Shown here: piece after piece, positions 32,403 to 52,058 of the stretch
Layout: each line of letters opens with the position of its first letter
Numbering within the stretch: position 1 is the first letter of the stretch
IMG/VR virus record: IMGVR_UViG_3300012953_000001
Location: 1 to 64,000 of that record
Length of the DNA: 64,000 bases
Direction: 5' to 3' (one strand)
DNA from: a virus
Program-made: the position numbers and the translations under genes
Notes under the pieces: generated by a model
Databases searched by the model: none
Seen by the model: the letters and a program-made list of their open reading frames with translations, nothing else
What the model was told of the DNA's origin: nothing

Positions 32403-33710
32403 CTACCTCCCCACCCAAGTCCCTGGTGCTTCCGCCCACGTCCGACGACTCTGGCCCAAAGTGGCCGGGTTCCTCGTCGGAGCAGTTTGAAACCCCCTCG
32501 GAATCGTCGGCCCGAAGGGATTTACCGGGGGGCCCTTTGCTCCACCACGTATTACCCCAGGCACCGTGGCGGTAGTATTACTAGGACCTTTTAGCGCTCC
32601 GACCGCAGCCCTGTTCCTTTGCTGAAGGAGTGTTGATGTCCTTGATTGGGCAAGCATCCTTTCATACTCAGGGGATACAGGTGGCCCAGAGCCCTTTGGT
32701 TGCTGTCCGGTGTATCTTGCTTTGGGAACAGCTTTGCCTACACGAGGTGAGCCAGGGCCAAGTCCTCGCAGAGTGTTAACCACATCTGCTTTGCGTAGAC
32801 CACCCTCGATAGGGATATCCGCAACAGAAGTGTTCGCCCCGGGAACTCTTGCTCGCCAGCCAGCAGCACGCTCTCTTAAGGACCGCTTTAAGGGACTTTT
32901 TTCTCTGAGAGCTTTAGCAAGCTGCTCTTTCTTAACGGTTCTAGAGCTATCCGGCCCAGCCTTAGTAACCCTCTTGCCTGTACTTCCCTTGGGGGAGACA
33001 TAGAAATCAACAATCTTAGGTTTGCCTGAAGGGGTGACCATTATGTTTGTGGGATTGGATCTATCCAGCGCGGCTCCAGTTCTAGACGCTCTGCCAGACA
33101 TCGCGTCCTTGATAGACTTTCCGCGACGACCCATCATGTAGCTATCGCCCGCCATCCCTTGCGATTTCCATAGCTGTTTTAGATGCTTCTTTGTGGCCCT
33201 AGGTAAGCCCCCTGAGCGGACGACTGTATCGTACATGTCTCGCCCAGGCACATACTCCGAGTGGTAGTACCTTCCACCAGTAGGCGTCTTATGGAGCTTA
33301 TTGCTCACCACCTTAGCGAAGTCCTGGTTTCCTCTAGACATCATATGCCCACCAGATTTCGCAGGTGTTGCTCTGAGCCTTCGAAGAACATTAAACTTTT
33401 CAGCCGCTTGCTGCTTGCTGAATATTGCCCCAGAGGGGTCCATCATTTTTCGAACTAGGACTCTGCTAGGCGCATCTTTAGCACCAATAACCAAGTGTGC
33501 TGGACCCTCGCTACCAGAACCAAGGAACCTTAGCTGGGAGCCTTGCTTAGAGGTCTTCAGTGCGCCTTTAGAGACTAATCGTGCTGCTAAAGACTCAGCC
33601 TTAGCGATGTTCCCAGCATTAACCAACGCCCGAATAGCTTTGAGCGCGGCTGTAGCTGCGACCTTTTCAAGCTCGGAACGGTAGTTGTCTATTAACATCG
33701 CTTGGCTCAT
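32403..33710 (-). CDS. Protein-kinase-fold protein with LEKVAA leader and basic tail
   Basis: FLGSGSEG (Gly loop), VLVRK, SEYVPG (hinge), ALDRSNPTNIMVTPSGKPKIVDF (catalytic loop and DF). Confidence 0.6.
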   Translation of the reverse strand: MSQAMLIDNYRSELEKVAATAALKAIRALVNAGNIAKAESLAARLVSKGALKTSKQGSQLRFLGSGSEGPAHLVIGAKDAPSRVLVRKMMDPSGAIFSKQQAAEKFNVLRRLRATPAKSGGHMMSRGNQDFAKVVSNKLHKTPTGGRYYHSEYVPGRDMYDTVVRSGGLPRATKKHLKQLWKSQGMAGDSYMMGRRGKSIKDAMSGRASRTGAALDRSNPTNIMVTPSGKPKIVDFYVSPKGSTGKRVTKAGPDSSRTVKKEQLAKALREKSPLKRSLRERAAGWRARVPGANTSVADIPIEGGLRKADVVNTLRGLGPGSPRVGKAVPKARYTGQQPKGSGPPVSPEYERMLAQSRTSTLLQQRNRAAVGALKGPSNTTATVPGVIRGGAKGPPVNPFGPTIPRGFQTAPTRNPATLGQSRRTWAEAPGTWVGR

Positions 33711-33971
33711 CTACCCCTCCGTTGGCTCGAAGTCATCGCATAAAAAATCCGCCCTAACCGGAGAATCCCCGTGCTTAGAGCACATACCATCACCCTTCCA
33801 ACTCCGCCCAGGCCTGTACCCAAAGCTTTGGCAACCGTCACACGCCGCATCACTTCTGTCCGACACTCGGAGATTGGGCGGGCGCGACTGCGCTAACTTC
33901 TGGAGTTGTTTTTCTAGAGAAGAATCTAGAAAAGAGTCCAGGGGATTTTTTGGGTCTTTTGGCGTATACAT
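33711..33971 (-). CDS. Small Cys4 protein overlapping the SNF2 3' end
   Basis: LEKQLQKLAQ motif, then CDGC…C…CDDF; about 120 nt overlap with the upstream gene in another frame. Confidence 0.5.
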   Translation of the reverse strand: MYTPKDPKNPLDSFLDSSLEKQLQKLAQSRPPNLRVSDRSDAACDGCQSFGYRPGRSWKGDGMCSKHGDSPVRADFLCDDFEPTEG

Positions 33972-35631
33972 AGCGAGTCTCACCCTTATCATCTACGTAC
34001 TTGTAGAGATGCTTCTTTGTTTTGTAAGCGCCGTAAAACTGTTCCTGCTGCTTGAACTTTCTACTGGCAACGTTGTCCATCCACTGGTCGGTAGTCTGTG
34101 GTGTTTTCTTACCGATTAACTTACCGAAAAATCCCGGACGCTTACTCATTGGTACGGTGCTTTGGTAACGTCTGACCTTCACAACGCGGTTCTCTAAGGA
34201 ACGATGTTCTTGCCCACCGAGTCTTCTAGCTCTTCCTTCTGCCTGAAGAACTCTTTGTGGGTTGAAGTGCCCATCTAAAGACATGAACGCTGTTGAGTTT
34301 TTTAGGTCTAACCCCTCGGCCCCAGCACCGCTAATAACGATGACTCGCTTCTTCCCAGACTTATACGCCTGTACTCCTTCTTGTCTAGAGACAGCGGTTA
34401 CTTTTCCACCACCTACCTCTGTGCCTTTACCAACAAAAATTGAATGCGGAATGCCACGTTCTTTAAGGCCTGCCGCTAAGACATCAACTCCGCCGCGTAC
34501 CAAGTTCGAATATAGGACAACCTTATTGTCCTTCCTTTCTACTAGGTGGGCTTCCGTATCGTTTAGTAGCTTGTTCACTTTAGGGGTTCTTCGGGCAGAC
34601 TCAGCTAACGACACATCACTTCTCCCCGAAGCCAATGAGTTCGCTAATTGCCGTGCCTGAGACACCTGAGAGAAAAGAAGCTTGGCATCCCTAACTGTTA
34701 TGTTCGGGTCTTTTTTGGTGATGTATTTTTTCACCGGCCCAAGCTTATCTAAGGAAAGTTGGTAGAGGCGATACTGCTCTTTGGACATTGGGACTTCTAC
34801 AGTCTCAGTGTCCTTTCTGGGCATCGTCTTTCCTTTGAGGTCTTTTGTTTGGACGTAGTCAATTTTGGTGCCGGTTCTGTCTGACAGGTCCCCGACATTT
34901 TTCATCCCAACAATTTTCTTTTTGGAGTCGTTAAACCCGCGAGTAAACCCGATTGTTTGGGTGTACCTGCGCTTGAACTGCTTTGGGGACAGGTCTCTAC
35001 GTCCCTCACTTAGTGTTAGTAAGGTAGCTATCTCTGATGGGTTGTTATTGATTAAGGACGCGGTCAGGCCCATGAAGTTTGTGGCCATTGATCGGGCAAT
35101 GGCAAGCGCCTTAAACGTCGTAGCAGACTCATTTCGAGTCTTATGGAATTCATCAGCGATAATAGTATCAGCACCGCTTCTTCTCATAAACCCGACAGGG
35201 TCTCTTCGAAACATTGAATAGCTGATGACTGTGTAGTCTTTATCGGTCTCTTCTCCGGGACGGATATACCCAGACTTTTTAGCTTTCTCTGAAGAAGACC
35301 CTACTGCCTGCCAAGAACTGCTTGTGAACTTTTCGATGCCATTTTTAGCAAAGTTGTCACGCAAGCCAGAGGGCACAATCACGATTGCTTTTTTAGCTTT
35401 ACCTTCGTGCTTGAGTTTCTCAAACCCGTAGATACTTGTGACTGTTTTACCAGTGCCCATCTCGTGGGCTAGGATCATCTTCCCCTTGTTCGCAAACAAG
35501 CGATCAATCGCTGCTGCTTGATGCGCGTAGGGCTTAAACCACTCTTTCATTGAAGGTATACCGGTGCCGTGCGCAGGCTTATCTCCTGCTGCTTCAGCCG
35601 CCTTCTTGATTAAGTAGTCGCCAAGAGTCAT
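33850..35631 (-). CDS. SNF2/SWI2-family helicase-like ATPase
   Basis: PYAHQ, AHEMGTGKT, IVPSGL, IIADEFH, LTASLINN, GAEGLDL, QAEGRARR; leader LIKKAA. Confidence 0.88.
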   Translation of the reverse strand: MTLGDYLIKKAAEAAGDKPAHGTGIPSMKEWFKPYAHQAAAIDRLFANKGKMILAHEMGTGKTVTSIYGFEKLKHEGKAKKAIVIVPSGLRDNFAKNGIEKFTSSSWQAVGSSSEKAKKSGYIRPGEETDKDYTVISYSMFRRDPVGFMRRSGADTIIADEFHKTRNESATTFKALAIARSMATNFMGLTASLINNNPSEIATLLTLSEGRRDLSPKQFKRRYTQTIGFTRGFNDSKKKIVGMKNVGDLSDRTGTKIDYVQTKDLKGKTMPRKDTETVEVPMSKEQYRLYQLSLDKLGPVKKYITKKDPNITVRDAKLLFSQVSQARQLANSLASGRSDVSLAESARRTPKVNKLLNDTEAHLVERKDNKVVLYSNLVRGGVDVLAAGLKERGIPHSIFVGKGTEVGGGKVTAVSRQEGVQAYKSGKKRVIVISGAGAEGLDLKNSTAFMSLDGHFNPQRVLQAEGRARRLGGQEHRSLENRVVKVRRYQSTVPMSKRPGFFGKLIGKKTPQTTDQWMDNVASRKFKQQEQFYGAYKTKKHLYKYVDDKGETRYVYAKRPKKSPGLFSRFFSRKTTPEVSAVAPAQSPSVGQK

Positions 35632-36476
35632 CCCTGCACGCCCCTGTGCTCCGCGTCAGACTGGATTTTTTGAGAAGCCTTGCTGGCCACTCTGGATAAA
35701 GCAGCGCCGCCACCAAAAGCTGCCAGTCCGAGCCCAAAGCTCTTTGCTGAGCTTCTTTTGAAGAGCTTGTTCAAGAGTTTTTTATCAATGCTTTTAGGGG
35801 ATTTTTTCAAAAGCTCTTTAAGCTTCTCAATGCTTATGGGTTTAGCTTCTTTCTTTGCCTGCTTGATAAGCAGTGCATGTGCGAGCTTTTCATACCAAGA
35901 GCTACTCTGAACCTCGGACCAAGCTTCGTTGACCTTCTTCATCTTCTCAGGGTCACCGCCCCGGTCTGGGTGATGCTTGAAGGCTGTTGCCCTAAAATGC
36001 TTCTTTGCCTCTTTTTTGGTCTTAACGTTCTTTGGAATATTAAGTGTTGATAGATTATCCTTAATAGTGCTTCGCCCTGGGCTCGTGTACTGCCTACGAC
36101 CACCACCGCCAGCATTTCGCCATGTCTGTTCCCAGCTTTCGTCAGCAGCCTTTCGAAATCGCTTCGTGAACCTTGCCATGTCTACACCAAGGCCAGCGTA
36201 ACCACCGAGGGACGACCCAACACCAGCGCCAGTCTCTCCCGCGATCCTCCGGTCTAGATCCATACGAGTTCGATACTTCTTTGAAAGAAGCATCTTCATC
36301 TTGTGGACCGCTTTCTTTCCTACTGGGAGCTTACGTAACTTCCTGTCGAAAAGTTTCTTACCAAGATGCTTGCCCCCGAAATGCCCCGCAGTGCTGCCTG
36401 TAATGGTGCCAGCGTAATCTTTGGCTAATTGGCCAAGTTCTTTCGCAGCAGATGCTTTCGCTACTTTTTCATACAT
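35628..36476 (-). CDS. Modular protein: glycine zipper, J-domain (HPD), glycine zipper
   Basis: LSTLNI…KEAKKHFRATAFKHHPDRGGDPEKMKKVNEAW (about 35890-36060); YEKVAK and YEKLAH motifs bound the modules. Confidence 0.75.
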   Translation of the reverse strand: MYEKVAKASAAKELGQLAKDYAGTITGSTAGHFGGKHLGKKLFDRKLRKLPVGKKAVHKMKMLLSKKYRTRMDLDRRIAGETGAGVGSSLGGYAGLGVDMARFTKRFRKAADESWEQTWRNAGGGGRRQYTSPGRSTIKDNLSTLNIPKNVKTKKEAKKHFRATAFKHHPDRGGDPEKMKKVNEAWSEVQSSSWYEKLAHALLIKQAKKEAKPISIEKLKELLKKSPKSIDKKLLNKLFKRSSAKSFGLGLAAFGGGAALSRVASKASQKIQSDAEHRGVQG

Positions 36477-39428: not shown

Positions 39429-41420
39429 CTACGCCAGTGAAACATTAGCTCTGATTTGTAACTTCTTAAGCCCTTGCGTTGCCCTCTCAAGGCCACGAAG
39501 AGCCGAAGAGACAGCGCTCTCAGGAACATCCGAGAGCCCCAAGCGAACCCCCACAAGAAGTTCTGCCAGCTTGGAAGAAGCTTCTTCAAGTGTAGGAATC
39601 GCATCAACGTATCCCATGATGTTCTCAGGAGTAACGAAATTGAGTGACAGGACGGAGTCCACAGTTCCAGCAGCGGTCAATGCTGCGGCCTCTTTTGTGA
39701 GGTCCATATTGATGACCTTAGCCAACTCAATAAGCTCGCTATCTACCTGGGCGACCTTCTCCTTCTCGCCTAATCGCTTATCTGCCACAAAGGAGATCGA
39801 GGTGTTCTTGGCTGCGGACGCCAACTTCTTAACAGCACCATCAGGAGTATCTCCCAATACGCCAAGAAGAAGTAAAGACTCTTGCCCAGTAAGACCCGCG
39901 CTCTTAATCAAGCCGTCAACAGGTCTGCCAGAAAAAGCGAACTCGGAGCCATCTGAACGGATAGTGACCTCCATCATCCGGTCCTTCCTAGACGCAATCT
40001 TGTCCATCGCAACAGCATCAGTTGCGTAGCGTCCACCAAAGGCGAGGGGCACAAACGTGGCATCCTCAGGAAATAAGTAGTCGTTTCTTTCGATGTGGAG
40101 AGGCTTCCGCACGTTGGCAATCTTCAGCATCCCGCGACCCCTGATTGGGTGGTCGTAGATGTAGGAGTCACCATTATCGTCGGACACCTTGTGAAGAATA
40201 CTCAGAGGCTCTGTAACAACTCCTGCCTCTTTATATACAAAGACGCCTTCCCCATGCGGGTCTGCGCCAGCCAAGGTATCTAGATCCAAGGTGCCACAAG
40301 ATACGCCTGCTACCTTTTCCTGGAAAGCCGCACCGGACTTACCTACGACAAGGCACAGATCCATACGACTGCCATCAAGCGATTCCACATCCGTGATAAC
40401 AGCGGCTCTTTGGGCACTCCCTGATTTAGTCATAACGGAGTAGACCCCGTTCCCATCCACAGTCTTCAGGTTGGCAGTCTTCTCAACTGAAACTAGTTCG
40501 GAGTTACTTTCTGGAACAATGAGAGTGCTGCCATGATTAATTACATGCTGTCGAATCTCTAAAGGAATCTCCTGCCCGTCAACGTTGCTAAGGAAAATCT
40601 CTTGGGAAGTCCCGTCCACAGAAGCCATCTTTAGGGAGTAACCACCATCAACCTTAGAGATGATTGTGGCATCGAAGTCGTCGATGTTACCGGCAGGCTC
40701 AGAAGGGGTTCCATGAGCCTTTTCGGAATTCTCGGCAAGCTTTACGATTGCTGCGCTGAATGCATCATTCAACATAATAGCATCTTTAAGGGATTGATCG
40801 CCCGCCACCTTATGGAGGAACTCTTCGACAGCACGAGAGTCAATCGATGGGGACACTGCATCTAAAACAGATGCCTGCTTCACCGTGGCGTTTGTCGCAC
40901 CGCCCTGACCACCACCATACGCCTGCTGAGGCTCTTCTGGTGTAGTTACGGGGTTGAGTGCCCCACTCGGGTTCGGGGCCACGATGTACTGAGACATATC
41001 GAATAGAGCACGAGAAATGCGCTCCTCGTTCAGAGGGAGAAACCTTCCGTCTGGCGAAATGAACACGTCAAAAGAGTACGCCTTCTTGTTCTCCACAATG
41101 ATTGGGATGCGCAAAGAGGTTTTCTTCTCTTCTGGGCTTACTGGTTGCTCAGGGGATCTAACCATTTCTCCCATGCGAGACTGGCCGGGTCCTGCGGGGA
41201 CATCGGGCGCATGAGAAACCATGAACACGCCGTACATGTAACCAAGACTTTCGTCCTGGCCATCGATGGACATGTTTACTTTGTACTTACCTAAAAAAGA
41301 GTGCTGCTTATATAGATGCGCGAGCAACTCACTAGGATAAGTGCTGGGGTTGTCTCCCAACATAAATTTAGACGCCGTTTTCTCGAACGTCGGTCGTTGT
41401 AATTTTCTAACGAGTTCCAT
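39429..41420 (-). CDS. Large head core/inner-body-like protein with many K-x-A-S motifs
   Basis: FEKTAS, VKQAS, LKMAS, VEKTAN, DKIAS, KKLAS, TKEAA. Confidence 0.65.
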   Translation of the reverse strand: MELVRKLQRPTFEKTASKFMLGDNPSTYPSELLAHLYKQHSFLGKYKVNMSIDGQDESLGYMYGVFMVSHAPDVPAGPGQSRMGEMVRSPEQPVSPEEKKTSLRIPIIVENKKAYSFDVFISPDGRFLPLNEERISRALFDMSQYIVAPNPSGALNPVTTPEEPQQAYGGGQGGATNATVKQASVLDAVSPSIDSRAVEEFLHKVAGDQSLKDAIMLNDAFSAAIVKLAENSEKAHGTPSEPAGNIDDFDATIISKVDGGYSLKMASVDGTSQEIFLSNVDGQEIPLEIRQHVINHGSTLIVPESNSELVSVEKTANLKTVDGNGVYSVMTKSGSAQRAAVITDVESLDGSRMDLCLVVGKSGAAFQEKVAGVSCGTLDLDTLAGADPHGEGVFVYKEAGVVTEPLSILHKVSDDNGDSYIYDHPIRGRGMLKIANVRKPLHIERNDYLFPEDATFVPLAFGGRYATDAVAMDKIASRKDRMMEVTIRSDGSEFAFSGRPVDGLIKSAGLTGQESLLLLGVLGDTPDGAVKKLASAAKNTSISFVADKRLGEKEKVAQVDSELIELAKVINMDLTKEAAALTAAGTVDSVLSLNFVTPENIMGYVDAIPTLEEASSKLAELLVGVRLGLSDVPESAVSSALRGLERATQGLKKLQIRANVSLA

Positions 41421-41432
41421 TATTTATACCCC

Positions 41433-41924
41433 TTAAGACCATGGCAACACTATGGGTGTTGGCGCTGGTGTTGTCTGAAGACCAGTTATGGCCCAAGTCA
41501 ATAATACTCCGTGTAGAGCGGTTGTTGAAGGCATTGTAGATTCCGAAGGCGGTAATGCTAACAACACACTCAGATTAAGTGGCGCTGCTGGCGGTGTATG
41601 CGTAACCGGAGGCGGTGGCATAACATTACCAGGAGACGCGCATAAAGCAGCGAAGGCTGTAAAACCAACCTCTAATGCCTGCTGGCTCATAGCTTGGGGC
41701 GAAGACATAACACCTAGAGCAGCCCCTATAAAAGCTTGTTTCCCTAAGCCCAGCCCTACAGGTGTCCAGGCTGGTATAACTGACTGCTGGAAAAATGCTT
41801 CCGCAACGTTTGCCCACTTCTCAGCGGCGTTCCAGCTTTGTAGGGCTTCCTCAGATTGAGGTAGCCCACCTACAATATTTTGTACTTGAGCATCCATAGG
41901 TGCTGCTGCTGCGGCTAAAGGCAT
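41433..41924 (-). CDS. Spike-associated hypothetical protein
   Basis: Start coupled by TAATG overlap to the spike stop codon at 41924-41926. Confidence 0.55.
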   Translation of the reverse strand: MPLAAAAAPMDAQVQNIVGGLPQSEEALQSWNAAEKWANVAEAFFQQSVIPAWTPVGLGLGKQAFIGAALGVMSSPQAMSQQALEVGFTAFAALCASPGNVMPPPPVTHTPPAAPLNLSVLLALPPSESTMPSTTALHGVLLTWAITGLQTTPAPTPIVLPWS

Positions 41925-43300
41925 TACGGTTTCACCTTTACTTTTTGTGACCCCACGCTCGGTGTGAACGACGGAATCATAGGCCCACTCGGACCCCAGG
42001 CGGTAACGCACTGGAACGCGGACTTCATAAAAGTTTCTAGGTCTTCGAACCGAACAACCATATTATCAGCACCTTCTCCTAGCTCTATATTCTCACTAGC
42101 TTTTAGAATCACGTCTTTACTAGTAAATTCAATACTATTAACAACTTCCCACACAACTTTCTTGCACGCCATCTTGAATTCATTGGATTTAAGAAACTCG
42201 GCGTAAGAGTCGCCTGACGCGTCTTTAGCCCCATCGCCCCAATCTAGTCTAGCGGAGCCATGTACTGATGCGTACACATCTTTTTCTACCTCATGCCGAA
42301 TACTTCCCTTAGAAAAAACAAAGTTGTCTCCGTCCCTGTTTAACTGGAAGGCGTAAGTCACCTTTCCGCTATTATCACCATCATCGTGATTATAAACAGT
42401 AATACTTATAACACCCTTCTCTTCTGCGGTAATACCCTCTTCTGGTGGACCGCCCCTACTTTGCATAAGATCGGCATTTGCAAAAATATGTTCTGCATCC
42501 ACCTCGGTGTCTAATGTCTCGTCGGTTAAACGGCCTACCCTAAGCTCAACGGTATATTTGCCTTTTGACACATCTTCCTGTGCCAAATCTTTGATATTGT
42601 ACCGCACGATGCAGGGGGTTTCTTCTGCGGTCTTAAGCGCGTTCTTTTGGCCCTCGTCTAAAAAATAGTTGGACGATGGTACGCTTCCTGTCCCCCCTGC
42701 TGGATTCTCTCCTGCGGAAAGAACAGCGTGCCCCCATTCAATTTCTCCTACCGGGGAAAAAGCTTGGTACCTTTGGAAGTAGTCCCTAATGACGTTTTCC
42801 ACGGGCAGGTACACTCTTTGTGCTAGTCCCGTAGCCCCGATCTGGACTATTCCACCCCTACGCAAGACAATTTGATTCTCGTCTACGGTGCTCAGCATGA
42901 TGTCGCCAGCTTCAAGTGGATCTCTAAACCCACGATAACTAGGCCCCAAATCTTGGTGAGACTCGTCTATCGTATCCTCGTCCTCGTCCGCCTCATTCGC
43001 GGCCTGCGTGACAGGGGTCAACACAAACCCCAGGATAAAAGATGTCCGATCTGCGCAAGAGCAGATGTAGCAAAGCGAATCAACCTCGGGTATGAAGTTT
43101 ATGCCTCCAGCATGGTCTCTATTACAGTAAGGGACCATGAATGGGATATCCACCATCGTCTGCATGGTGAACACTGTTTGAACGTCCACAGTCCACTCTT
43201 TGACGTTCACATTTGTGACTTTCGCCAAGGTTATCTTTGGTGGCCCGTCCGCATAACCAGACTCGCTCGCGTATCCATCATTTTTTGGATCTTCTGCCAT
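41924..43300 (-). CDS. Baseplate central spike (gp5/gpV/VgrG-like)
   Basis: N-terminal OB-fold LAKVTNVN…TVDV…GGINFIPEVDS; beta-helix-like C-terminus ending GPSGP. Confidence 0.7.
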   Translation of the reverse strand: MAEDPKNDGYASESGYADGPPKITLAKVTNVNVKEWTVDVQTVFTMQTMVDIPFMVPYCNRDHAGGINFIPEVDSLCYICSCADRTSFILGFVLTPVTQAANEADEDEDTIDESHQDLGPSYRGFRDPLEAGDIMLSTVDENQIVLRRGGIVQIGATGLAQRVYLPVENVIRDYFQRYQAFSPVGEIEWGHAVLSAGENPAGGTGSVPSSNYFLDEGQKNALKTAEETPCIVRYNIKDLAQEDVSKGKYTVELRVGRLTDETLDTEVDAEHIFANADLMQSRGGPPEEGITAEEKGVISITVYNHDDGDNSGKVTYAFQLNRDGDNFVFSKGSIRHEVEKDVYASVHGSARLDWGDGAKDASGDSYAEFLKSNEFKMACKKVVWEVVNSIEFTSKDVILKASENIELGEGADNMVVRFEDLETFMKSAFQCVTAWGPSGPMIPSFTPSVGSQKVKVKP

Positions 43301-46300
43301 TAATATGGCCCTCCCTTGGACTTGTCTTTATGCCCAAACTCCGCGCTATAAGCTAAGCCCGGTGCTGGGTGGAGTCCGTGAATATCGGACTCCCATCCCT
43401 CATTGGCTGCTCTGATAAAGGTCTCCTTCAGCTTTCTGTACTGGAGTCTGGCTAGCCAATCTGTTGTTTGATCCAGCGGCAAGGTCTCTACACCACGAAG
43501 AACTGGCACTGTCTGTATAGGATTCTTCATAGTTTTATTTAGTGACCCTGCATGGGATAAAGAAATGTAGTCGCCTCGGATAAACTTAGGGGAGTCTCCT
43601 GGGTCAACAACTTTGCCGAGGTTGGTAAGCGCCTTGGTGACAACCTCAACATTTCTTTTCTTAATGCCCTCACTGGCATAGACCTTGTGGATCTCGTCTG
43701 CCAGATACCGCTGAACTGTTTCTATGTTCGTCTTTTCAAGAAGATCGTGTGGGTTTATTATGCCCGACGAAATAGGCTGTCCCTTACGGATCTTCTGTCC
43801 CTTTTTAACTGTGACCCTAAGGTTCCCAGGAATGTAAGCGTCCTGCGTACCTATGACTAAGTCATACCCACCAACAGGGCTCTCCTTGACGGATTTAACC
43901 TCTCCAGCCATAGGGGAAAGGGTCGCTGCATGAGCCAGGGTTTCTGGCATCTTTAGAAGCTGGGATACACGGTCGATCCCGCCAACAACGGAGCTTCCTC
44001 CTCCTGCGACACCACCTGTATGGAAAGCTTTCATGGAAAGCTGCGTTCCGCGTTCACCAATAGCAGTTCCCGCGATTAGCCCAATATTTGTGCCTTTGGA
44101 GATAACTGTTCCGTCATCGGTGACCCCGTAACACTTAGAGCATAAGCCCTTGGAAAGTTCACACTTCAGGGGCGATCTAGCAATAACTCGATCTACTTTC
44201 GCAGACTTGAACTTAGAAAGAAGATTAGGAGTAATAAGGGTATTCGCAGAGACCTTGAGCCCACCAGAGGAAATGGGCTTCGCAGTAAACCTATCTACTA
44301 AGTCCGAGTCCGTGACGGGTAAGGCGATGCCCTTAGTGGTTCCGCAGTCATCATTGGATACGATGTAGGAGATGGTCGTGTTAGCAATTTGCTTGTTTAA
44401 CGCCCCAGGCTTCTGGACCGACTGAACCTTTTTAATCAGGCCCGATCTCGCACCAGAAGTAGTTACCCAGTAGTCCGAAGACTTAAGTCCCTCTGAATAA
44501 GACCTTGAAATTGGGACTGGGATGACTCTGCCCTGAGCGTTCTCCACAAGCATCGGAGAAATAATCATCTGCTTCAACTGCGCCCAAGATGGTTTAACAC
44601 CGGCTTTTTCCATAGCCCTTAGCTTATTCCCGTCCTTATCTAACAAGCCCCGAGCCTCTTTACTCATGGCGTCAGAAGCATCTGTGTAAAGCTTAACAAC
44701 CTTAAGGTCTGCGGCTTCCTGGGAAAGCATGTTCATGGAAACTTGTTTGCGAATCACAGACTCTTGCTTCGCAGCTTTAGCCATGTGCTTCTCTCGAATC
44801 TCCCGCAATGGGAGGAAGTCGGAGAGCCCAAAACTAAAGCCGATGTTGTAAGCGTGCCCGAACCCAAGATCTTTAATCTTATCTGCGGTATTGGCGAACT
44901 CGGAAGGTGTCTTTGTCGCGAGGTCCCTAAGAACAGATTGTAGTCTACCCTTATCTACAACAGCCTTTGGATCCTTTAAAAATTCTTCTGACTGAATTTT
45001 GGAAGGCAGTTTGCTGTTGAAGAGCAGTCTCCCCGCTGTCGTCTTTATAGCCCCAACCTGCACAACATCTGTCATGCTTGTTTCGCCAGACTTAGCGGAG
45101 TCAATCGCTTCCTTAGCATTCTTAAAGCGGTTATTGGAACCCTTGCCCCAACGAGTGAGAAGGTACAGACCAAGCTGCCCTTCAAGGGTTGGTTGATACA
45201 TTACCCTTCCAGTAGCTGGGTTAAACAGGTTCTTGGAAGGCATCATCTTTTGTGCCTCGTCAACCGCCTCCTGCGATACAGGGACAAATACCGCCATGGT
45301 ATCCCCGTCAAAGTCAGCGTTAAATCCACCGACAACCAGTGGGTGGATGTGGATAGCAGACTCATCATGGAGCTTTGGCTTAAAGGCCATAATCCCAAAC
45401 TTATGCAGTACTGGATCTCTTTTAAAGAGTACTGGCCTCTTACTAACTGCAATATCAAGCGCCTTGTTCGCCAAGGAACTCTTCTTGTCTACTTCTTCTC
45501 GTGCCTGCAAGGGGGTGTACCCCATCTTTACAAGCTCTCTTACAACGAACGGGCGATAGATTTTCATCGCACCCTTCCGTGGCAGACCAAGCTCATCAAG
45601 ATGCAGTTCCATATTAGGCACAATAACGGAACGCATACTTATGTCTTGTCGCCTATCTACTAGCCGTTGAAGGAAGTAGCTCTGCTTAGGTGAGGATCGC
45701 CCGGACAAAATATGAAGAATCCCCGGAGGCCTTGGCTGACCGTCTGTGGTCAAGCCGCCCTGCGTCATTGTCTGGACACCCATCAGAGCTTCTGTCGCTG
45801 AGTAAAGATCCTCCCTAAGCTTAGTAATCTCACTATCCGGAAGGACCCCTTTGGCCTCGTTCAGCTTCTTATTTAGAAGAGCGATGTCTCTGTAAAGCAT
45901 GTTGACGCCATCAATGTTCAAGTCACCGCCCTCCATGGCAGTAATCGGACGGAACAGAGGCGGCAACACTGGGACGTGATCCAGTACGTAGGCTTCAGCA
46001 GCACTGATGTTGTTGTTCTTGAGCATCAAGCTGTACTTGATTTTCTTGTTGACTTTATCGAGGTCATTGCGGCGAACCGTTTTGATCTTCTCTTTTGCCT
46101 CCGCAAGCTCCTTATCAAGGTCCAGTCCTTTAAGGGCCGCAACTATGGCAGAGGGACCAGTGCTTACCCCATCACCCGACGCTACAACGTCTCCCTCGGC
46201 GTTAAACCCTAATTTACCGTCAATGATACCGTCGTACTCTTTTCCAGTAATCCCAAGGAGAGAGCGTACGCCTTTTTCGAAGACAGGATTGGGTATGGAC

Positions 46301-49300
46301 TCCGCAAGCTTGATATGCGACCAGTTCTTTCCGCCAGGACCTCCAGTAATGGTCTCGTCAAACAAACCATTCTTTTCAGGCTTCAGGTCCTTTCCTCTGA
46401 TGACCCTACTGCCGTCCTTAATTTCCCCATTAGACATTTCAACAATCTGTTTGTCCGTTAGTGGGGAAACAATCAGCCCATTACCATCCTTCTCAACATT
46501 CAGCCCTAGCGCACTCATGTAGGCTAGGAACTTCTCGTAAGCAAACGAGGGCTTCGGTGTTGGAAGCACTGCGCCTGTCTGAACCGCAGTCCAAACCTCG
46601 TCCTGCTGCTTGTCTCCCTTATAGGTTAATGCGTCCCGAATGTTCGCCGTAGCTCCATGCGCGAGCATTGCGTACAAACCAAGTTCACCAAACCGCTGTG
46701 CGCCTCCGCTCTTGCCACCGCTTTTTGGAACCAAGTTCGCGTCATAGTCGTAGCCATACCCATGTGATCTGGCGCTAAGCTTCTTATCGACTTGGTGCAT
46801 AAGCTTGAGGAAGTACTGATGTCCCACCAAGACTTTACCGAGGCTCTTCCCGGTTTGCGGGTCGAACAACTCACGCGTCTCAGAGAGCCCAGCCCCCTTT
46901 AAAGCATTATCTACAACATCACGGTAGCCCATATCACGCTCATGCTCTTTTACATGAACGGTCTTAGGGCCTGCTTTGGTCTGGATAACCCGAGTATGCG
47001 CCTTAACGCGGACAATCTTCTTCCTATCATCTGACTGAAAGTTCTCGACTGCGTACGGTTCGCCTTGGGTGTAAGCAACATTCCCAAGGCTTGTTTCCAG
47101 AACCTGCCCCGGATTGATTCGCCCAGGAACACCCGAGGGGTTTAAGACAATATGTAGTGCGTTGCCTTCTGCGTCCTTGGGCATCTCTTCATCAGGTATT
47201 ACTGCGGTAATAACACCCTTGTTTCCATGCCTACCCGTAAGCTTGTCTCCAATATCTGCTTGCTCTTCAGTCTTAACGTAGACAACGATCTCTCGACCAT
47301 TTCTAACTACGTCTGTCACGGTTCCGCGATAGGGCTTGTCCCAAGTCAGTGACTTGTTTTTATACGGTCGGACCAAAGACTTGTGAATGCCTTTGAGTAG
47401 AATCTGCTCCTTAGAAGGCTCCGTCTTTTGCAGAACGGTGACAATGGTATCGCCGGGGTCAACAACTTGACCCTTTTTGATCACACCATCTTCATCCAGC
47501 TTCACGGAATTCTCATCAGATATGGAGCCGGGGTAGTTTGCGCGAAACTTCTTTAGCCCAACACCCATACCCTTATCTATGTAAGACCGCTCTTTATGTA
47601 GGTGGTTACTAGTAAGCTTCTTGGAGGCACTCTCACTAATTACAATTCCATCCTCAAACACAAGACCCTTGTAGGGCAAGTACCCAACACGAAGGTTTGT
47701 CCCCAGGGAAAGCGTGCCGCCCCGAGTGAAGTTTGTGTCTGCGATTATTTGACCAGAGGAAACTTTGTCCCCCTTTTTCACCAGCGGATTACTGCTAATA
47801 AAAGCTTTTTTATCGTTGAGCGGGAAGTTGTCATAAAGCTGAATTTCGTGCTTCTTTCCTGCCTTGTCTTTAACCACAACTCTGGACGATGAAATGGAGT
47901 CCACAAATCCAGACACAGGTGAAGGATGCGAGGTAAACCGACCAACGATCTTTTCCCAAGTAGCGTAGTTAGGGTCCGGGTTTCCAGAAACAACCTGCAC
48001 CAGGGGCTGCTCCGGGTCCTTGAGGGAGATAGCCTGCTCAATATGTCTGGTCGCCATACCAGCGCGATTCGCTTGGTCAGATGGAAGAAACGGGACAAGA
48101 TTAGCGGTAATAGAGAACATCTGTTTTGGGGACTGTAGTACATAGTCCACATCAGAAGACGACACACGACTAGGGTCTCCACCACCTACCGGAATAACAA
48201 CAGACGTGTCTTTTTTGGGCTTAGGGGTTTTACCAGAGAAGTCGTACTGGTCTGAGAAAGATACATTGCCTAGAGTTAAATCTGCTGGAGACTTATCGTT
48301 GTATTTACCGGCCTTTACGTCAAAGACACGGATTGTAGGCGTTGTTCCTTTTTTACGGACCCCAAGAGACAGGTGCCCACTAATGCCAGAACGCTTACCC
48401 TCTGGGGTATGTACCGGATCAATAAACCCTAAGTAACTAGAGTCAATCAGCTTAGCCTCATCAGATATCGCACTGTCGTTCTGGATACCTCCGGTTCCCA
48501 TGATGGTGGTTCTTAAGAAGCCTCCAACCATATCGACAGGGTTAACTTGGGTTGTTTGTTGAGACAGCGATGTGGAAGTAAAAAATGCCTTAACGGGCAC
48601 ATTGAAAATATCAGAAGTAACAATGGCGCGGACGTTGTCCCTGCGGTCCAAATTGTTTGTCATCTTGTAGGTGATGCGCCGCTTGGAGTTGGCTATACGC
48701 TCTGGGATGTGGTCATTAATCGCCCAGAGTTCCTTGAACTGTAGCGCATCTCGGTTGTCTACCTTGTCATCACCCTTGTTAATGTTTAGGAGCTTCTCAG
48801 ACGAAGCCAGTAATGCTCCGCCTGTAACAGAGGAGAAGCCTTTGCCTAGAGTGATCTTGGTGGTGTCTTCAAGAAGCTTGGTTTTTTCAAGTGCCTCTTG
48901 AATTACTGGCACCGCCTCCGAGTCGGTCTTCGCGCCCGCTCTAGGATTGAGTGCTTTTGATAGCTTTACAAGTTCGCCGCGCTTCTTTGACTTCAGGGCG
49001 CTTGTATAGAGTTCCGTACCCCAGGTCTTCTGGATATTCTCGTCTTTTACACCTAGTGCCTGTAGCACCGGGAGTAGCTGGATATTCGATGTCCCGTAGG
49101 ACATGAGGAAACGCCTCTTGGTGGGGTCAAACCCAAGACGAAATCCTCTTCCTTCTGCCAGATTGAACTGGGACTCAAGCTCACCGTTTGCCTTACGCCT
49201 AGCGTAAACACCAGACTTCAGACGCCACTGGTTGTCTGCTTGGTACTCCGTTCCATCAACTATATAGCTATACCGCCTAGTGATCTTCGGAAGGTTCAGA

Positions 49301-49572
49301 ACTTTCAACTTCTTGGCAGAGTTAACAACCTTACCAGTCTCGTTGTTGACCAGATCGAAATTACCAAAAATACCCTGCGCCCAAGTTCTGCCACGAAGCC
49401 GTGCTTTCTTCTGTGCGCCAATGTCGTCAAGGTCTAGGGGGTCTCCCACATAGATATCCTTGGCAACAAGGGTGTGCTTCTTTCCCACCAGGGGAAAGAA
49501 CTTTTTGATTTCGTTTATTGTCCCGTCTTCGAGAGTTTCCATTACCCTCTGGGGATCTAAAACATTAGACAT
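43300..49572 (-). CDS. rpoBC: Single-chain fused beta-beta-prime DNA-directed RNA polymerase
   Basis: Beta motifs: YIVDGTE, TPEG, GDKLTGRHGNKGVI, LNPSGVPGRIN, YFLKLMH, AQRFGE. Beta-prime motifs: HIKLA, VPVLPP..RP, RQD.S.RSVI, RDPVLH, NADFDGD, GAR.GL, GERGTQLSMKAFHTGG. Confidence 0.95.
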   Translation of the reverse strand: MSNVLDPQRVMETLEDGTINEIKKFFPLVGKKHTLVAKDIYVGDPLDLDDIGAQKKARLRGRTWAQGIFGNFDLVNNETGKVVNSAKKLKVLNLPKITRRYSYIVDGTEYQADNQWRLKSGVYARRKANGELESQFNLAEGRGFRLGFDPTKRRFLMSYGTSNIQLLPVLQALGVKDENIQKTWGTELYTSALKSKKRGELVKLSKALNPRAGAKTDSEAVPVIQEALEKTKLLEDTTKITLGKGFSSVTGGALLASSEKLLNINKGDDKVDNRDALQFKELWAINDHIPERIANSKRRITYKMTNNLDRRDNVRAIVTSDIFNVPVKAFFTSTSLSQQTTQVNPVDMVGGFLRTTIMGTGGIQNDSAISDEAKLIDSSYLGFIDPVHTPEGKRSGISGHLSLGVRKKGTTPTIRVFDVKAGKYNDKSPADLTLGNVSFSDQYDFSGKTPKPKKDTSVVIPVGGGDPSRVSSSDVDYVLQSPKQMFSITANLVPFLPSDQANRAGMATRHIEQAISLKDPEQPLVQVVSGNPDPNYATWEKIVGRFTSHPSPVSGFVDSISSSRVVVKDKAGKKHEIQLYDNFPLNDKKAFISSNPLVKKGDKVSSGQIIADTNFTRGGTLSLGTNLRVGYLPYKGLVFEDGIVISESASKKLTSNHLHKERSYIDKGMGVGLKKFRANYPGSISDENSVKLDEDGVIKKGQVVDPGDTIVTVLQKTEPSKEQILLKGIHKSLVRPYKNKSLTWDKPYRGTVTDVVRNGREIVVYVKTEEQADIGDKLTGRHGNKGVITAVIPDEEMPKDAEGNALHIVLNPSGVPGRINPGQVLETSLGNVAYTQGEPYAVENFQSDDRKKIVRVKAHTRVIQTKAGPKTVHVKEHERDMGYRDVVDNALKGAGLSETRELFDPQTGKSLGKVLVGHQYFLKLMHQVDKKLSARSHGYGYDYDANLVPKSGGKSGGAQRFGELGLYAMLAHGATANIRDALTYKGDKQQDEVWTAVQTGAVLPTPKPSFAYEKFLAYMSALGLNVEKDGNGLIVSPLTDKQIVEMSNGEIKDGSRVIRGKDLKPEKNGLFDETITGGPGGKNWSHIKLAESIPNPVFEKGVRSLLGITGKEYDGIIDGKLGFNAEGDVVASGDGVSTGPSAIVAALKGLDLDKELAEAKEKIKTVRRNDLDKVNKKIKYSLMLKNNNISAAEAYVLDHVPVLPPLFRPITAMEGGDLNIDGVNMLYRDIALLNKKLNEAKGVLPDSEITKLREDLYSATEALMGVQTMTQGGLTTDGQPRPPGILHILSGRSSPKQSYFLQRLVDRRQDISMRSVIVPNMELHLDELGLPRKGAMKIYRPFVVRELVKMGYTPLQAREEVDKKSSLANKALDIAVSKRPVLFKRDPVLHKFGIMAFKPKLHDESAIHIHPLVVGGFNADFDGDTMAVFVPVSQEAVDEAQKMMPSKNLFNPATGRVMYQPTLEGQLGLYLLTRWGKGSNNRFKNAKEAIDSAKSGETSMTDVVQVGAIKTTAGRLLFNSKLPSKIQSEEFLKDPKAVVDKGRLQSVLRDLATKTPSEFANTADKIKDLGFGHAYNIGFSFGLSDFLPLREIREKHMAKAAKQESVIRKQVSMNMLSQEAADLKVVKLYTDASDAMSKEARGLLDKDGNKLRAMEKAGVKPSWAQLKQMIISPMLVENAQGRVIPVPISRSYSEGLKSSDYWVTTSGARSGLIKKVQSVQKPGALNKQIANTTISYIVSNDDCGTTKGIALPVTDSDLVDRFTAKPISSGGLKVSANTLITPNLLSKFKSAKVDRVIARSPLKCELSKGLCSKCYGVTDDGTVISKGTNIGLIAGTAIGERGTQLSMKAFHTGGVAGGGSSVVGGIDRVSQLLKMPETLAHAATLSPMAGEVKSVKESPVGGYDLVIGTQDAYIPGNLRVTVKKGQKIRKGQPISSGIINPHDLLEKTNIETVQRYLADEIHKVYASEGIKKRNVEVVTKALTNLGKVVDPGDSPKFIRGDYISLSHAGSLNKTMKNPIQTVPVLRGVETLPLDQTTDWLARLQYRKLKETFIRAANEGWESDIHGLHPAPGLAYSAEFGHKDKSKGGPY

Positions 49573-49605
49573 TAATCCCTCCGTGCAGACACGGCCTATT
49601 AGTTA

Positions 49606-49621
49606 GGTATAAGAACTATGA
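49606..49621 (+). promoter_or_regulatory. Copy of the GGYATAAG-N3-TRTGA motif
   Basis: GGTATAAGAACTATGA in the divergent gap between rpoBC and a small + strand gene, whose ATG lies inside the motif. Confidence 0.45.
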
Positions 49622-49806
49622 TGGGCAATGAGGCCCTCACCTTTAAAGCAACTCAAACAAAAGGAGTTTATGTTGTGATCAGTAATCGGAAGAAGTTGTA
49701 CCATGCACGTTCTAATTATAGAAAGATGCCTCGTGGCGCATTCTGCAAAAATAGTTGTGAAGACCTTGCAGACGCGGTTGAGGAATCTCTTAGTTCGGGG
49801 AAGTAA
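49618..49806 (+). CDS. Small hypothetical protein (possibly leaderless)
   Basis: 62 aa; no RBS, ATG 5 nt after the TATAAG box. Confidence 0.45.
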   Translation: MMGNEALTFKATQTKGVYVVISNRKKLYHARSNYRKMPRGAFCKNSCEDLADAVEESLSSGK

Positions 49807-49809
49807 CCC

Positions 49810-50028
49810 TTGAAGATTAAAAAGCCTATTAAATGCTTTATCAAACAGGGCTACTGTCGCGAACCAAAGAACTGCGGGCAGTGCAGCTACTTCCTTGAAA
49901 AAAGAGGCGGTGTCTTCTGGGTATGTTCTAAATGCCTTACGCATGATGACGACACCTCTAGCTTCTTCCAAAAAGGTCGATGTGATCGCTGTGATAACTT
50001 CGCAGCAATCCTGGTATGTGTAGATTAA
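49810..50028 (+). CDS. Cys-rich Zn-binding-like protein
   Basis: Nine Cys: C…C…CGQC…CSKC…CDRC…C. Confidence 0.55.
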   Translation: MKIKKPIKCFIKQGYCREPKNCGQCSYFLEKRGGVFWVCSKCLTHDDDTSSFFQKGRCDRCDNFAAILVCVD

Positions 50029-52058
50029 ATCTGCGCACCATCTGGACCTGTTCTGGGTGGTTTCTGCTCCGGTAAAGGTCTCATGGGTTTAACCCCCTGG
50101 CCTGATAGAGCATTGTTTACAAGCATGTATAGGTCTGGGTTGCTGGCTCTTAATTGGGCCAGCACCCTATACCTATCCACTTCATTCATTTTTTGTATCT
50201 CAGACGTGAGCTTTTTAGCCTGCGCGAACAGGTCTACCATTGGGCTCTGCCCCATTTGGGTAGGACTCTGTTCTGCCCCTTGGACTACGCCACCAGCCTG
50301 CTGCGCCTGTGGTGCTGCTTGTTGCTGCGCCTGCGCGGCATTCGGGTCTTGTTGCTGCGGGGCATCGCCTTGCTGTTGGGGTGGTGGTTGTTCCCCTCCG
50401 CCTTGTTGAGGTTGTCCCTGCCCCTGTCCTTGAGCGCCTTGCTCTTGTCCGGGAGCGCCCTGCTGCTCTTGTCCGGGAGGAGGACCATACTGCTGCTGCA
50501 TCTGCATCTGGTTCTCTTGCTGCATATTCTGCGACTCGATTTGATACCGAGTCTGTACAAGCATTGACTCTCCCTGAGCCTCTGTTTGTCGAATTTGCTG
50601 CTCCCGCTGGGTCAAGCCAAACATCTCTGCTTCTTTGTTGATCAGTTCAATCTCGTTGTCGAAATTGAAGTCTCGGGACTGCAAGAACGTGCGGCGACTG
50701 ATCATACCAGCGTTGGCCAAGTTCATATCAAAAGATGCCCGTTGAATGTCATCAGCCATCTTGAATGGTTTGAACTTCAACTTAATCTTGGGGAGGTTCA
50801 GGAAGTGCGCAACGCGGTCTCTAATGAACTCAACACACCGAAGCATATCCTGTCGGTTTCCTAAGAATTCATTCTCAAGAGCCCGAAGATTAACAGAGGC
50901 ACCGGAATACTGGGCCTCTCCGTAGAAGAATCCTGTGGGAACTCCCATACCTGCAATAATTTGATCACTGTAAATTCTCAGTTCTTGGTGTAGTAGTAAC
51001 GAACGGCCTTGGCCACCAACCATCTGGTAACCAACGGGAACGGGCATAACCGGTATGTGGTTATTGTCTTGTCGCCACCTACGGATTTGCCCCTGAACCT
51101 CTTTCTGCCAATCTTGTAAATTGATTTGTGAGTAAGGGTTGTTTCCGTCAGCGGAGATTTGCGGGAAGAGTACTCGCATTGGAACAACGTGCTCCATGGC
51201 GACAGCTTCCTGCGCTTTTCGTAAGACCTGTAAGAAGAATATGTCTTTGAGTACAGGTAGGATTAGAGGAGCGCCCCAACCACTGTCCGATGGGGATCTT
51301 GATATGGAAGGGCGTCGGCTATGGAAAATCTTATCGCTATCTAAAAGAATCGACTTCTTTTTACGTAGCGCATCAATAAATGCCTGGGGAATCGTCTCAA
51401 GGACATCTGGCTTACCCAGAGTAATGTCGTTCTTAAGCCCTCGGGGCATCTTGTAGTAGTACAAGTACTTGCCGGTAATCTCATTATATTTAATAATAAT
51501 GTGCTTTGGATTCCAGCGAATGAGGGAGATCTTAACTGCGGCTTTAACAGGTTCGTCTGTAACTCTGGCGGGTCCGAAGTGACCGCATTGTGGGCAGTCT
51601 AAGTGGAACTGGAGGCCCTTCCATTTATACCCCGTGCTATGTGCGGGACCATCCCAACCACAACTAGTGCACTTGAGTACTTTGGTAAACGGGAACGCGA
51701 TAGAGATGAAGGAGTTCCCGTAAGTATACCGGTCCAAGTTTGCTTCAATCAGAAAAGACCGGAGCAAGAACTGGTTCTCAAACAGTTCCTTGTACATACC
51801 GACAACGCCTTCGTTATCGTCTTCGTAAACCAAGTCAGTAATGGGGTAGGTAGCCAGCTTCTGGGTTACAGCGTTAACCAGGGGGTTGGTAAGCTGGTAA
51901 TAATGGCACCAGTCAAAGCACTCTTTAATTGTCTTTGGAATGTAGTTCTTGGCAACATCAAAGAAAGGACTCGGGTAAAACCCATCTGGGCGACCAACGG
52001 ACTTCGCCCTAGCTCCGCTAGAGGATAACCCATATCGTTGTGAACCATAATCTGCCAT
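50025..52058 (-). CDS. Portal protein
   Basis: YPSPFF…NPLVNAVTQKLATYP; LISLIRWNPK-type stem (ISLIRWNPKHI); GWGAPLILPVL; PMRVLFP; IAGMGVP..F; Zn-ribbon insert and Gln-rich C-terminal linker. Confidence 0.8.
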   Translation of the reverse strand: MADYGSQRYGLSSSGARAKSVGRPDGFYPSPFFDVAKNYIPKTIKECFDWCHYYQLTNPLVNAVTQKLATYPITDLVYEDDNEGVVGMYKELFENQFLLRSFLIEANLDRYTYGNSFISIAFPFTKVLKCTSCGWDGPAHSTGYKWKGLQFHLDCPQCGHFGPARVTDEPVKAAVKISLIRWNPKHIIIKYNEITGKYLYYYKMPRGLKNDITLGKPDVLETIPQAFIDALRKKKSILLDSDKIFHSRRPSISRSPSDSGWGAPLILPVLKDIFFLQVLRKAQEAVAMEHVVPMRVLFPQISADGNNPYSQINLQDWQKEVQGQIRRWRQDNNHIPVMPVPVGYQMVGGQGRSLLLHQELRIYSDQIIAGMGVPTGFFYGEAQYSGASVNLRALENEFLGNRQDMLRCVEFIRDRVAHFLNLPKIKLKFKPFKMADDIQRASFDMNLANAGMISRRTFLQSRDFNFDNEIELINKEAEMFGLTQREQQIRQTEAQGESMLVQTRYQIESQNMQQENQMQMQQQYGPPPGQEQQGAPGQEQGAQGQGQGQPQQGGGEQPPPQQQGDAPQQQDPNAAQAQQQAAPQAQQAGGVVQGAEQSPTQMGQSPMVDLFAQAKKLTSEIQKMNEVDRYRVLAQLRASNPDLYMLVNNALSGQGVKPMRPLPEQKPPRTGPDGAQI

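Follow-up and report, generated by a model that had tools for sequence, protein, structure and literature searches.

The locus described here raises the question of whether a phage can encode a bacterial-type RNA polymerase (RNAP) as one continuous catalytic chain, and whether such an enzyme is carried in the phage particle. It is found in IMG/VR virus record IMGVR_UViG_3300012953_000001, the genome of a marine phage that measures 178,429 bp, has direct terminal repeats and is rated complete. The first 64 kb of this record (positions 1 to 64,000) are referred to below as the window, and positions outside the window are given as genome positions. The gene in question is located on the minus strand at 43300..49572 and encodes a protein of 2,090 amino acids (aa), in which a beta module (aa 1 to ~1029) is followed by a beta' module (aa ~1030 to 2090). 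This protein is a genuine, streamlined single-chain beta-beta' enzyme encoded in the head/ejection gene block of the phage. Taken together, the data favor the view, to which we assign a probability of about 0.6, that this chain forms the catalytic part of a phage RNAP that depends on a sigma factor, is packaged in the particle and sets the infection programme in motion. The kind as such is already known, as RNAP subunits and a sigma factor were reported in particles of the Salmonella phage Arash; what is new is the architecture, the loss of a Zn-binding domain, the partnership with a sigma factor and the size of the family.

A first-pass annotation of the window, made by a model from the letters and a list of open reading frames (ORFs), had claimed that a single ORF carries the catalytic motifs of beta and beta' in order and without an intein, and the ORF itself, Pfam searches and alignments all bear this out. 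Pfam matches to Rpb2_3, Rpb2_6 and Rpb2_7 cover aa 341-996 and are followed by Rpb1_1, Rpb1_2, Rpb1_3 and Rpb1_5 at aa 1149-1880, with E-values of 6.6e-57 for PF00562 (Rpb2_6), 1.1e-26 for PF00623 and 6.6e-23 for PF04998. The NCBIfam rpoB and rpoC models also match (E 1e-101 to 1e-164), all of them under their equivalog cut-offs. In a MAFFT alignment that also included rpoB and rpoC of E. coli and other family members, the double-psi barrel of beta is recognized by GRHGNKG at aa 780-786, the catalytic NADFDGD motif occupies aa 1418-1424 (45301..45321, minus strand), and the bridge helix and the trigger loop align to the bacterial residues, while the C-terminal region of beta' is remodelled relative to bacteria. 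The two modules meet without a linker at the junction ALGLNVEKDGNGLIVSPL (aa 1021-1038; 46459..46512, minus strand), and a GGAGGG Shine-Dalgarno sequence precedes the ATG of the gene.

The same alignment to E. coli confirms the prediction that the second Zn site, the flap-tip helix, the lid and the clamp helices were kept. The helix of the flap tip, onto which region 4 of sigma docks in bacterial RNAP, is represented here by SKEQILLKGIH (aa 720-730; 47383..47415, minus strand), aligned to E. coli beta 897-909, EEKLLRAIFGEK. The lid and clamp helices, where sigma region 2 docks in the bacterial enzyme, lie at 45850..45969 on the minus strand and align to E. coli beta' 245-300. The second Zn site (DDCGT ... 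KCELSKGLCSKCYG; 44125..44352, minus strand) has the ligands C1743, C1804, C1811 and C1814, which are the only four cysteines of the protein, with none before aa 1743.

The N-terminal Zn-binding domain of beta', by contrast, is missing, and the clean deletion that had been placed at about 46300-46390 is found as a gap at nucleotides 46303-46383. At this scar, KPEKNGLFDETITG-GPGGKN-WSHIKLA (46303..46383, minus strand), the residues GGPGG-KN at aa ~1077-1084 stand in place of the domain, so that E. coli beta' 68-99 are absent, a 32-residue gap that includes the four cysteines at E. coli positions 70-88. Otherwise the alignment to E. coli shows gaps only at the lineage-specific inserts SI1, SI2 and SI3 and at the chain ends. 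The loss is common to the entire family of fused proteins described below as well as to Arash and the Vibrio phages D69 and D181, all of which have the same TGGxxG scar, whereas the four cysteines are retained in phages Carin-5, YerA41 and RHph_Y65 and in bacteria.

The window RNAP is a member of a very large family, comprising at least 150 clusters at 50% identity and found in mostly marine genomes of about 160-200 kb. A word-indexed search of Tara, JGI, ENA and Logan samples returned 770 matches at E <= 1e-20, and the best 120 of these were all fused, with lengths of 2030-3258 aa, identities of 42-100% and contigs of up to about 199 kb. Some of these contigs had been mis-binned into MAGs, and on this basis Alteromonadaceae are candidate hosts. 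An exhaustive search with the beta' half gave, for the best 150 clusters (50% identity), E-values that were all <= 1e-188 and identities of 35-61%; in nearly all of their full-length members the beta' part begins after aa ~980-1050. Among 144 further representatives, 46 had a length of 1990-2160 aa, 63 were longer, reaching 4739 aa, and 35 were shorter, mostly because they were cut at contig ends. An assembly artefact, which the first-pass annotation had named among the findings that would overturn its claim, is made very unlikely by the presence of the same fusion in at least 150 such clusters from independent metagenomes. When 185,579 species genomes were scanned with six peptide patterns, no close relative was detected, only ordinary Pelagibacter rpoBC. 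One apparently unfused beta' gene (P0398) was rejected as such, since it appears to be split by an intein; another (P0448) has an odd N-terminus and comes from a short contig on which beta is fragmented.

The window RNAP contains no intein, but inteins are present in 33 of the 120 nearest relatives, in the form of one to three inserts of 300-500 aa each that carry LAGLIDADG and intein Pfam domains. In the numbering of the window RNAP, the insertion sites are at aa ~392, ~636, ~779 (GRHGNKG), ~985-1071, ~1430-1440 (immediately behind NADFDGD) and ~1850 (trigger loop). Since genes that are expressed and indispensable are the ones to which inteins home, their occurrence in catalytic motifs argues that the same holds for the RNAP. 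In one relative (L026; JGI contig Ga0302244_1000032, 125 kb), the RNAP is encoded by two genes, L026:1-1685 and L026:6001-9111, with small genes filling the 4.3 kb between them. The first gene reads ...TGGIRGDRW|CFAHDTLVLT..., with an intein N-terminal-like block located about 90 aa before the stop, and the second starts with ~42 aa ending in ...THNYIAGGVLVGN|SHFKLAEP..., an intein C-terminal-like block that is followed by beta'. The break falls exactly at the scar of the Zn-domain deletion. Judged by these sequence features, the arrangement appears to resemble a naturally split intein that would rejoin the single chain by trans-splicing.

The nearest isolates emerged from tblastn searches of phage records: the Vibrio phages D181, D148 and D69 (187 kb), whose matches cover 98% of the length at 30% identity, and also Salmonella phage Arash (181 kb). 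As in the window RNAP, beta of Arash, D69, D148 and D181 is fused to the N-terminal part of beta' (beta'N), the Zn-binding domain is lost and the gene follows that of the portal; Arash furthermore shares with the window phage a homologous sigma factor (gp10) and an SNF2 helicase (gp217), and the Arash and Vibrio genomes measure about 180-187 kb. The gene order in Arash is portal gp204, a small gp205, gp206 (1525 aa, beta and beta'N), a 4.7-kb stretch with other genes, gp216 (606 aa, the remainder of beta') and helicase gp217, and the layout in D69 is the same. The RNAP of these phages is thus split into proteins of 1525 and ~606 aa, with a chain break that maps to aa ~1510 of the window RNAP, which is one chain. 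The motifs of the Arash-like enzymes are degenerate (AADYDGD, GLHGNKG, an altered trigger loop), whereas those of the window RNAP and the fused family are canonical. As the Arash-like phages demonstrate, an interrupted beta' is tolerated by the enzyme. A group I intron that might have explained this split was looked for in the gap between beta'N and the C-terminal part of beta' in D69 and D181, and none was found. D181 does have group I introns elsewhere, at L022:694-901, upstream of or within the portal region, and at L022:4491-4771 (Rfam, 101-103 bits); the second of these splits the beta portion of the RNAP gene and is accompanied by a homing endonuclease.

Another line of evidence is the phylogeny that the first-pass annotation had proposed as a check. 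In an unrooted and thinly sampled maximum likelihood tree (LG+G4, 2003 columns, 20 rows) in which bacteria are represented by E. coli, Acinetobacter, Pelagibacter and Enterococcus, 12 fused proteins are found on one side of a branch with a support of 100; their sisters are Arash and D69 (support 100), and the four bacteria, YerA41 and Carin-5 fall elsewhere. The fused RNAPs hence form a phage clade apart from the four sampled bacteria. The tree excludes a recent capture from the sampled bacterial lineages and says nothing firm on the deeper origin. The window RNAP has all the features that characterize the Arash-like and fused clade, namely, the join of beta to beta'N, the TGGxxG scar, the position downstream of the portal gene and a sigma factor of the gp10 type.

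This sigma factor is encoded outside the window. The first-pass annotation had recognized no alpha, omega or sigma gene in the window, which is correct, and had proposed that the enzyme may use an unidentified specificity factor, which no longer holds: the whole-genome search that it had called for uncovered a sigma-70-family gene at genome positions 111,243-112,121. Its product of 292 aa shares 33.5% identity (E 8e-26) with Arash gp10, which is annotated as a sigma factor. Six-frame Pfam searches of the genome for sigma regions 2 and 4 gave no match, and the protein surfaced only through gp10. An alignment of 30 homologues shows recognizable regions 2, 3 and 4 behind a conserved N-terminal beta-hairpin segment, and many homologues bear PF04539. 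An AlphaFold 2 (AF2) model reached a mean confidence score (pLDDT) of 77.5, and all of its 50 best PDB matches were sigma factors (probability 1.00). On these sequence and model data, the protein is classed as a divergent sigma-70-family factor. As many as 169 homologues were found on contigs identical in size to RNAP-bearing ones (for example, 181199, 181912, 180954, 174029, 176613, 169782, 182687, 189099 and 177938 bp), indicating that both genes travel together across the family, and we infer that this sigma factor pairs with the window RNAP. A second candidate, a Sigma70_r4_2-like match at genome positions 153,855-153,938 on the plus strand within a 436-aa ORF (E 0.007), was dropped for want of Pfam and NCBIfam support and is probably a helix-turn-helix protein.

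A bipartite motif, TGCAAAA-N15-GGYATAAG, precedes about 12 intergenic units on the plus strand, and the spacing of its hexamers is 17 bp, as in sigma-70-type promoters. Sites are found at genome positions 131,100-143,400, 70,236 and 166,224 and, in the window, at 1854 and 53749. The motif is a candidate phage promoter class, and it may be the one served by this RNAP and the phage sigma factor. Upstream of minus-strand units, k-mer enrichment gave a weak TTAGTTA signal that belongs in part to the plus-strand motif.

The search for partner subunits was extended from the window to the full genome. No alpha (PF01000, PF01193) and no omega (PF01192) was detected in the 178,429 bp, while positive controls were obtained in 14 genomes. 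There is one Rpb2_6 locus and one Rpb1_2 locus in the genome, both in the fused ORF, and hence a single RNAP of this type. A search of the genome for a T7-type RNAP was also empty, and as its control matched in no genome this result is uninformative.

From these data the following course of infection can be proposed. The RNAP would be made alongside the head and ejection proteins and be packaged in the capsid together with the phage sigma-70-family factor. Both would be delivered with the DNA and initiate at the phage TGCAAAA-N15-GGYATAAG promoters without host RNAP. The covalent link between beta and beta', rather than an alpha dimer or omega, would keep the two halves together, and the flap tip and the clamp helices would have been retained as docking sites for the phage sigma factor. 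The loss of the Zn-binding domain may take away a surface that is used by host termination and regulatory factors.

Packaging of the window RNAP is plausible, and we consider it likely, by homology with Arash. In purified Arash particles, gp206 was detected with 3516 spectra, the most of all proteins, and gp216 with 1210, the sigma factor gp10 was found with 467 spectra and 100% coverage, and the helicase gp217 was also reported (PMC10585845). Several points weigh against the reading of a packaged, sigma-dependent enzyme. The Arash preparation contained 116 proteins, including ribonucleotide reductase and kinases, and its authors allow for carry-over of proteins that are abundant during infection (PMC10585845). 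The window RNAP contains no [LMFIV][ED]KxA motif, a sequence seen repeatedly near the N-terminus in many head-module proteins and of which ~1.5 would be expected by chance, so that this is weakly informative. The matches of the sigma protein to Pfam (region 3, E 6e-4; region 2, E 3e-3) and to NCBIfam (SigBFG, E 1.7e-6 over aa 117-289; sigma70, E ~1e-6; regions 2-4) are all under the curated cut-offs. The tree includes four bacteria and no outgroup, and a promoter of the RNAP gene itself was not found.

The strongest competitor is a non-virion RNAP that is made during infection for the middle or late genes, like the non-virion enzyme of phiKZ or the RNAP of T7, in which case the adjacency to the portal and spike genes would be mere gene order and the host RNAP, perhaps redirected by a phage sigma factor, would serve the early genes. 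The many evidently non-structural enzymes in the Arash particle proteome fit this possibility, as does the window RNAP's lack of the N-terminal tag or cleavage motif that is seen on neighboring head proteins, and it is common for phage sigma factors to act with the core enzyme of the host (PMC13282480). It is nonetheless unlikely, as the Arash homologue tops the spectra, even above the major capsid protein, the linkage of portal, RNAP and spike survives deep divergence, and the sole RNAP of the genome sits in the structural block, which is unexpected for a purely intracellular early or middle enzyme.

Doubtful as well is the idea that the phage chain is a catalytic core only, which forms a hybrid enzyme with host alpha2, omega and possibly a host sigma factor and is not self-sufficient. 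This would agree with the absence of alpha and omega genes from the genome, with motifs near the bacterial consensus and with the retention of the sigma docking elements. However, the RNAPs of phiKZ and AR9 work without alpha, omega and bacterial sigma factors and do not bind them stably (PMC13282480; PMC7598289), the C-terminal region of beta' is remodelled, and a phage sigma factor co-occurs with the RNAP. We infer that the window RNAP is independent of host alpha and omega.

A recent capture of a bacterial rpoBC fusion of the Helicobacter/Wolbachia type, or an artefact of assembly or frameshifting that joined two genes, deserves hardly any credence: the top-scoring NCBIfam match is indeed a model of fused beta/beta', NF007172, but its score falls far short of the cut-off, identity to bacterial proteins is 26-32%, the fused proteins occupy one side of a branch with a support of 100, with the Arash-like phages as sisters and the four bacteria elsewhere in the tree, the fusion recurs in divergent clusters from many independent samples, and the scan of species genomes returned no close relative.

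The fused enzymes of Helicobacter and Wolbachia, to which the first-pass annotation had likened the protein, do resemble it in architecture, with beta followed by beta' in a direct join on one polypeptide. The likeness goes no further than this, as the scores with the fused-rpoBC models are far under the cut-offs (579 bits vs. 5372 for NF007172 and 489 vs. 4632 for NF011417) and the phage proteins form their own clade in the tree with four bacteria. The fused rpoBC products of Helicobacter and Wolbachia are cellular proteins of about 2840-2890 aa in which the Zn-binding domain is still present and which function together with alpha2, omega and sigma.

A more far-reaching proposal combines these elements and is tentative. 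The chain and the phage sigma factor may constitute a complete holoenzyme of two polypeptides, without alpha, omega or the Zn domain. It would be packaged in the capsid and then injected, perhaps with the co-translated spike acting in concert, and widespread marine phages of ~180 kb could in this way run their whole programme without host RNAP. Selection for the single chain would be so strong that one relative restores it through a split intein, and a divergent small Cys-rich protein encoded next to the RNAP could replace the Zn module in trans.

To our knowledge, the multisubunit RNAPs of phages have so far consisted of four or five very divergent pieces (phiKZ, AR9) or have been barely recognizable (crAss, P23-45), all without a classical sigma factor. 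The fused family differs in that a single chain, from which the Zn-binding domain has been shed, retains the classical bacterial active site along with the flap tip and the clamp helices and has a companion of the sigma-70 family. Should it prove active by itself, no simpler holoenzyme of the bacterial type would be known. It could then aid the study of core assembly, of sigma docking and of the role of the Zn domain in termination, and might serve as an orthogonal transcription module. The family would further attest to an infection strategy that is common in the ocean yet has been overlooked; no paper describing it was found in the literature searched.

Comparison with characterized phage enzymes places these differences in context. 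Reviews of multisubunit phage RNAPs describe enzymes of four or five pieces without alpha, omega and sigma (PMC7598289; PMC7824862; PMC13282480), and an SNF2-type helicase has been linked to phage RNAPs (PMC7824862). Like the window RNAP, the phiKZ- and AR9-like enzymes are made of phage homologues of beta and beta' and dispense with alpha and omega, and one of the phiKZ/AR9 sets is carried in the particle and injected to transcribe the early genes (PMC7598289; PMC13282480). They consist of four or five very divergent polypeptides in two paralogous sets and use gp68 or gp226 instead of a sigma-70-family factor, whereas the window phage has one chain, one enzyme per genome, clear Pfam Rpb1 and Rpb2 matches and a recognizable sigma factor. 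Both barrels are in one polypeptide, as in the window RNAP, in gp66 of the crAss-like phage phi14:2 and in the RNAP of Thermus phage P23-45, which is fused to the tape measure protein; these two enzymes are reported to be packaged, to enter the cell with the DNA and to be linked genetically to the ejection apparatus (bioRxiv 10.1101/2020.03.07.982082; PMC10770324). Enzymes of the crAss/P23-45 type are too divergent for the COG0085 and COG0086 models (PMC7481178), whereas the window RNAP is plainly a bacterial-type beta-beta' protein.

A further group comprises mReC, YerA41, Carin-5 and the Rhizobium phage RHph_Y65, which like the window phage are tailed phages with full-length, alignable beta and beta'; in Carin-5 the sigma gene adjoins the RNAP genes. 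Their subunits are separate (in YerA41, beta' precedes beta), and Carin-5, YerA41 and RHph_Y65 keep the Zn-binding domain. In the paper on mReC (Weinheimer and Aylward 2020, PMC7481178), beta and beta' are treated as separate and a fusion is mentioned only for crAss. In mReC the capsid protein is of the gp23 type (PF07068) and the terminase belongs to PF03237, whereas the window phage has a PF05876 terminase and a capsid protein without a Pfam match; these marker genes and the fused RNAP set it apart from mReC. In the literature searched, no account of a phage RNAP of bacterial type with complete fusion of beta and beta' came up. A side observation concerns the C-termini: in three phage groups the RNAP ends in G-x-Y, as seen from KGGPY, NGRY, GGRY and LGSY(E) in the window RNAP and the Arash, D69 and Carin-5 homologues.

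Pfam and PHROG gave no match for the eight to ten ORFs that neighbor the RNAP gene, and the portal and spike proteins were thus identified through Arash homology, Atlas and a predicted fold. The portal protein (50025..52058, minus strand; 677 aa) shares 33% identity with Arash gp204 (E 6e-90) and has an Atlas feature score of 0.98 and TM values of 0.66-0.69 to portal clusters. Directly downstream of the RNAP gene, at 41924..43300 on the minus strand, a protein of 458 aa is encoded that resembles the central spikes gpV, gp138 and VgrG. Its AF2 model, built from an alignment of 38 homologues (pLDDT 73), was matched by Foldseek to phi92 gp138, the R2 pyocin spike, P2 gpV, Mu, VgrG and PVC/AFP spikes (probability 1.00, E 3e-5 to 1e-3), and Atlas links the protein to Phage_base_V clusters. 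Modeling hence confirms that the ORF is predicted to fold as a membrane-piercing spike. The translational coupling of RNAP and spike that had been noted from the sequence is real in the sense that the last A of the RNAP stop codon TAA is shared with the spike ATG (TAATG), an overlap of 1 nucleotide that recurs in three of four relatives compared.

Further along the same strand are a DnaJ-domain protein (35628-36476, minus strand; PF00226, E 9e-7), which lies between the RNAP block and the helicase, and an SNF2-family helicase (33850..35631, minus strand; PF00176, E 6.6e-20), whose homologue gp217 directly follows the RNAP genes in Arash. These are joined by the large terminase (PF05876) and a capsid protein that is homologous to Arash gp226 and has no match in Pfam. 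The order portal, gap, RNAP, spike-like gene, a protein of ~660-700 aa, and then SNF2 helicase and terminase is kept in relatives with 85, 71, 47 and 44% RNAP identity, and a spike-type gene follows the RNAP in relatives L013, L014, L023 and L024. The sequences LEKYA, LEKxA or VEKTA occur at or near the N-termini of many head-module proteins (9136-9660, 17865-18446, 28523-29131, 32403-33710, 39429-41420 and others) and may be a protease or targeting signal.

The first-pass annotation had located the RNAP between portal and spike genes in a virion operon. The location is supported by the portal homology and the spike fold, but not the notion of one contiguous same-strand operon, since a cassette of two genes on the opposite strand intervenes. 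The 450-bp gap between portal and RNAP contains two small plus-strand ORFs (49618..50028), of 62 aa (49618-49806) and 72 aa (49810-50028), neither of which has a Pfam match. Their translations are conserved in L023 and L024, and a 113-aa version is present in L013. A 122-aa minus-strand ORF at 49603-49971 is probably a shadow of these two, as no gene on that strand was called in this gap in relatives. Given this antisense cassette, the RNAP gene does not simply continue the portal transcript. An Rfam search of 41-54.5 kb gave no match. The best-conserved stretch of the gap, as judged from relatives with 71-85% identity, is a promoter-like motif, GTGCAGA-N15-GGTATAAG (49583..49613, plus strand), which is directed away from the RNAP gene and overlaps its ribosome-binding site on the other strand. 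It is a copy of the bipartite motif described above, placed here ahead of the two small ORFs. The 72-aa ORF has eight cysteines in the pattern C-x7-C-x5-C-x2-C-x14-C-x2-C-x17-C-x2-C, spaced like a double Zn ribbon, and it is suggestive that a Cys-rich protein is encoded beside an RNAP devoid of its Zn domain.

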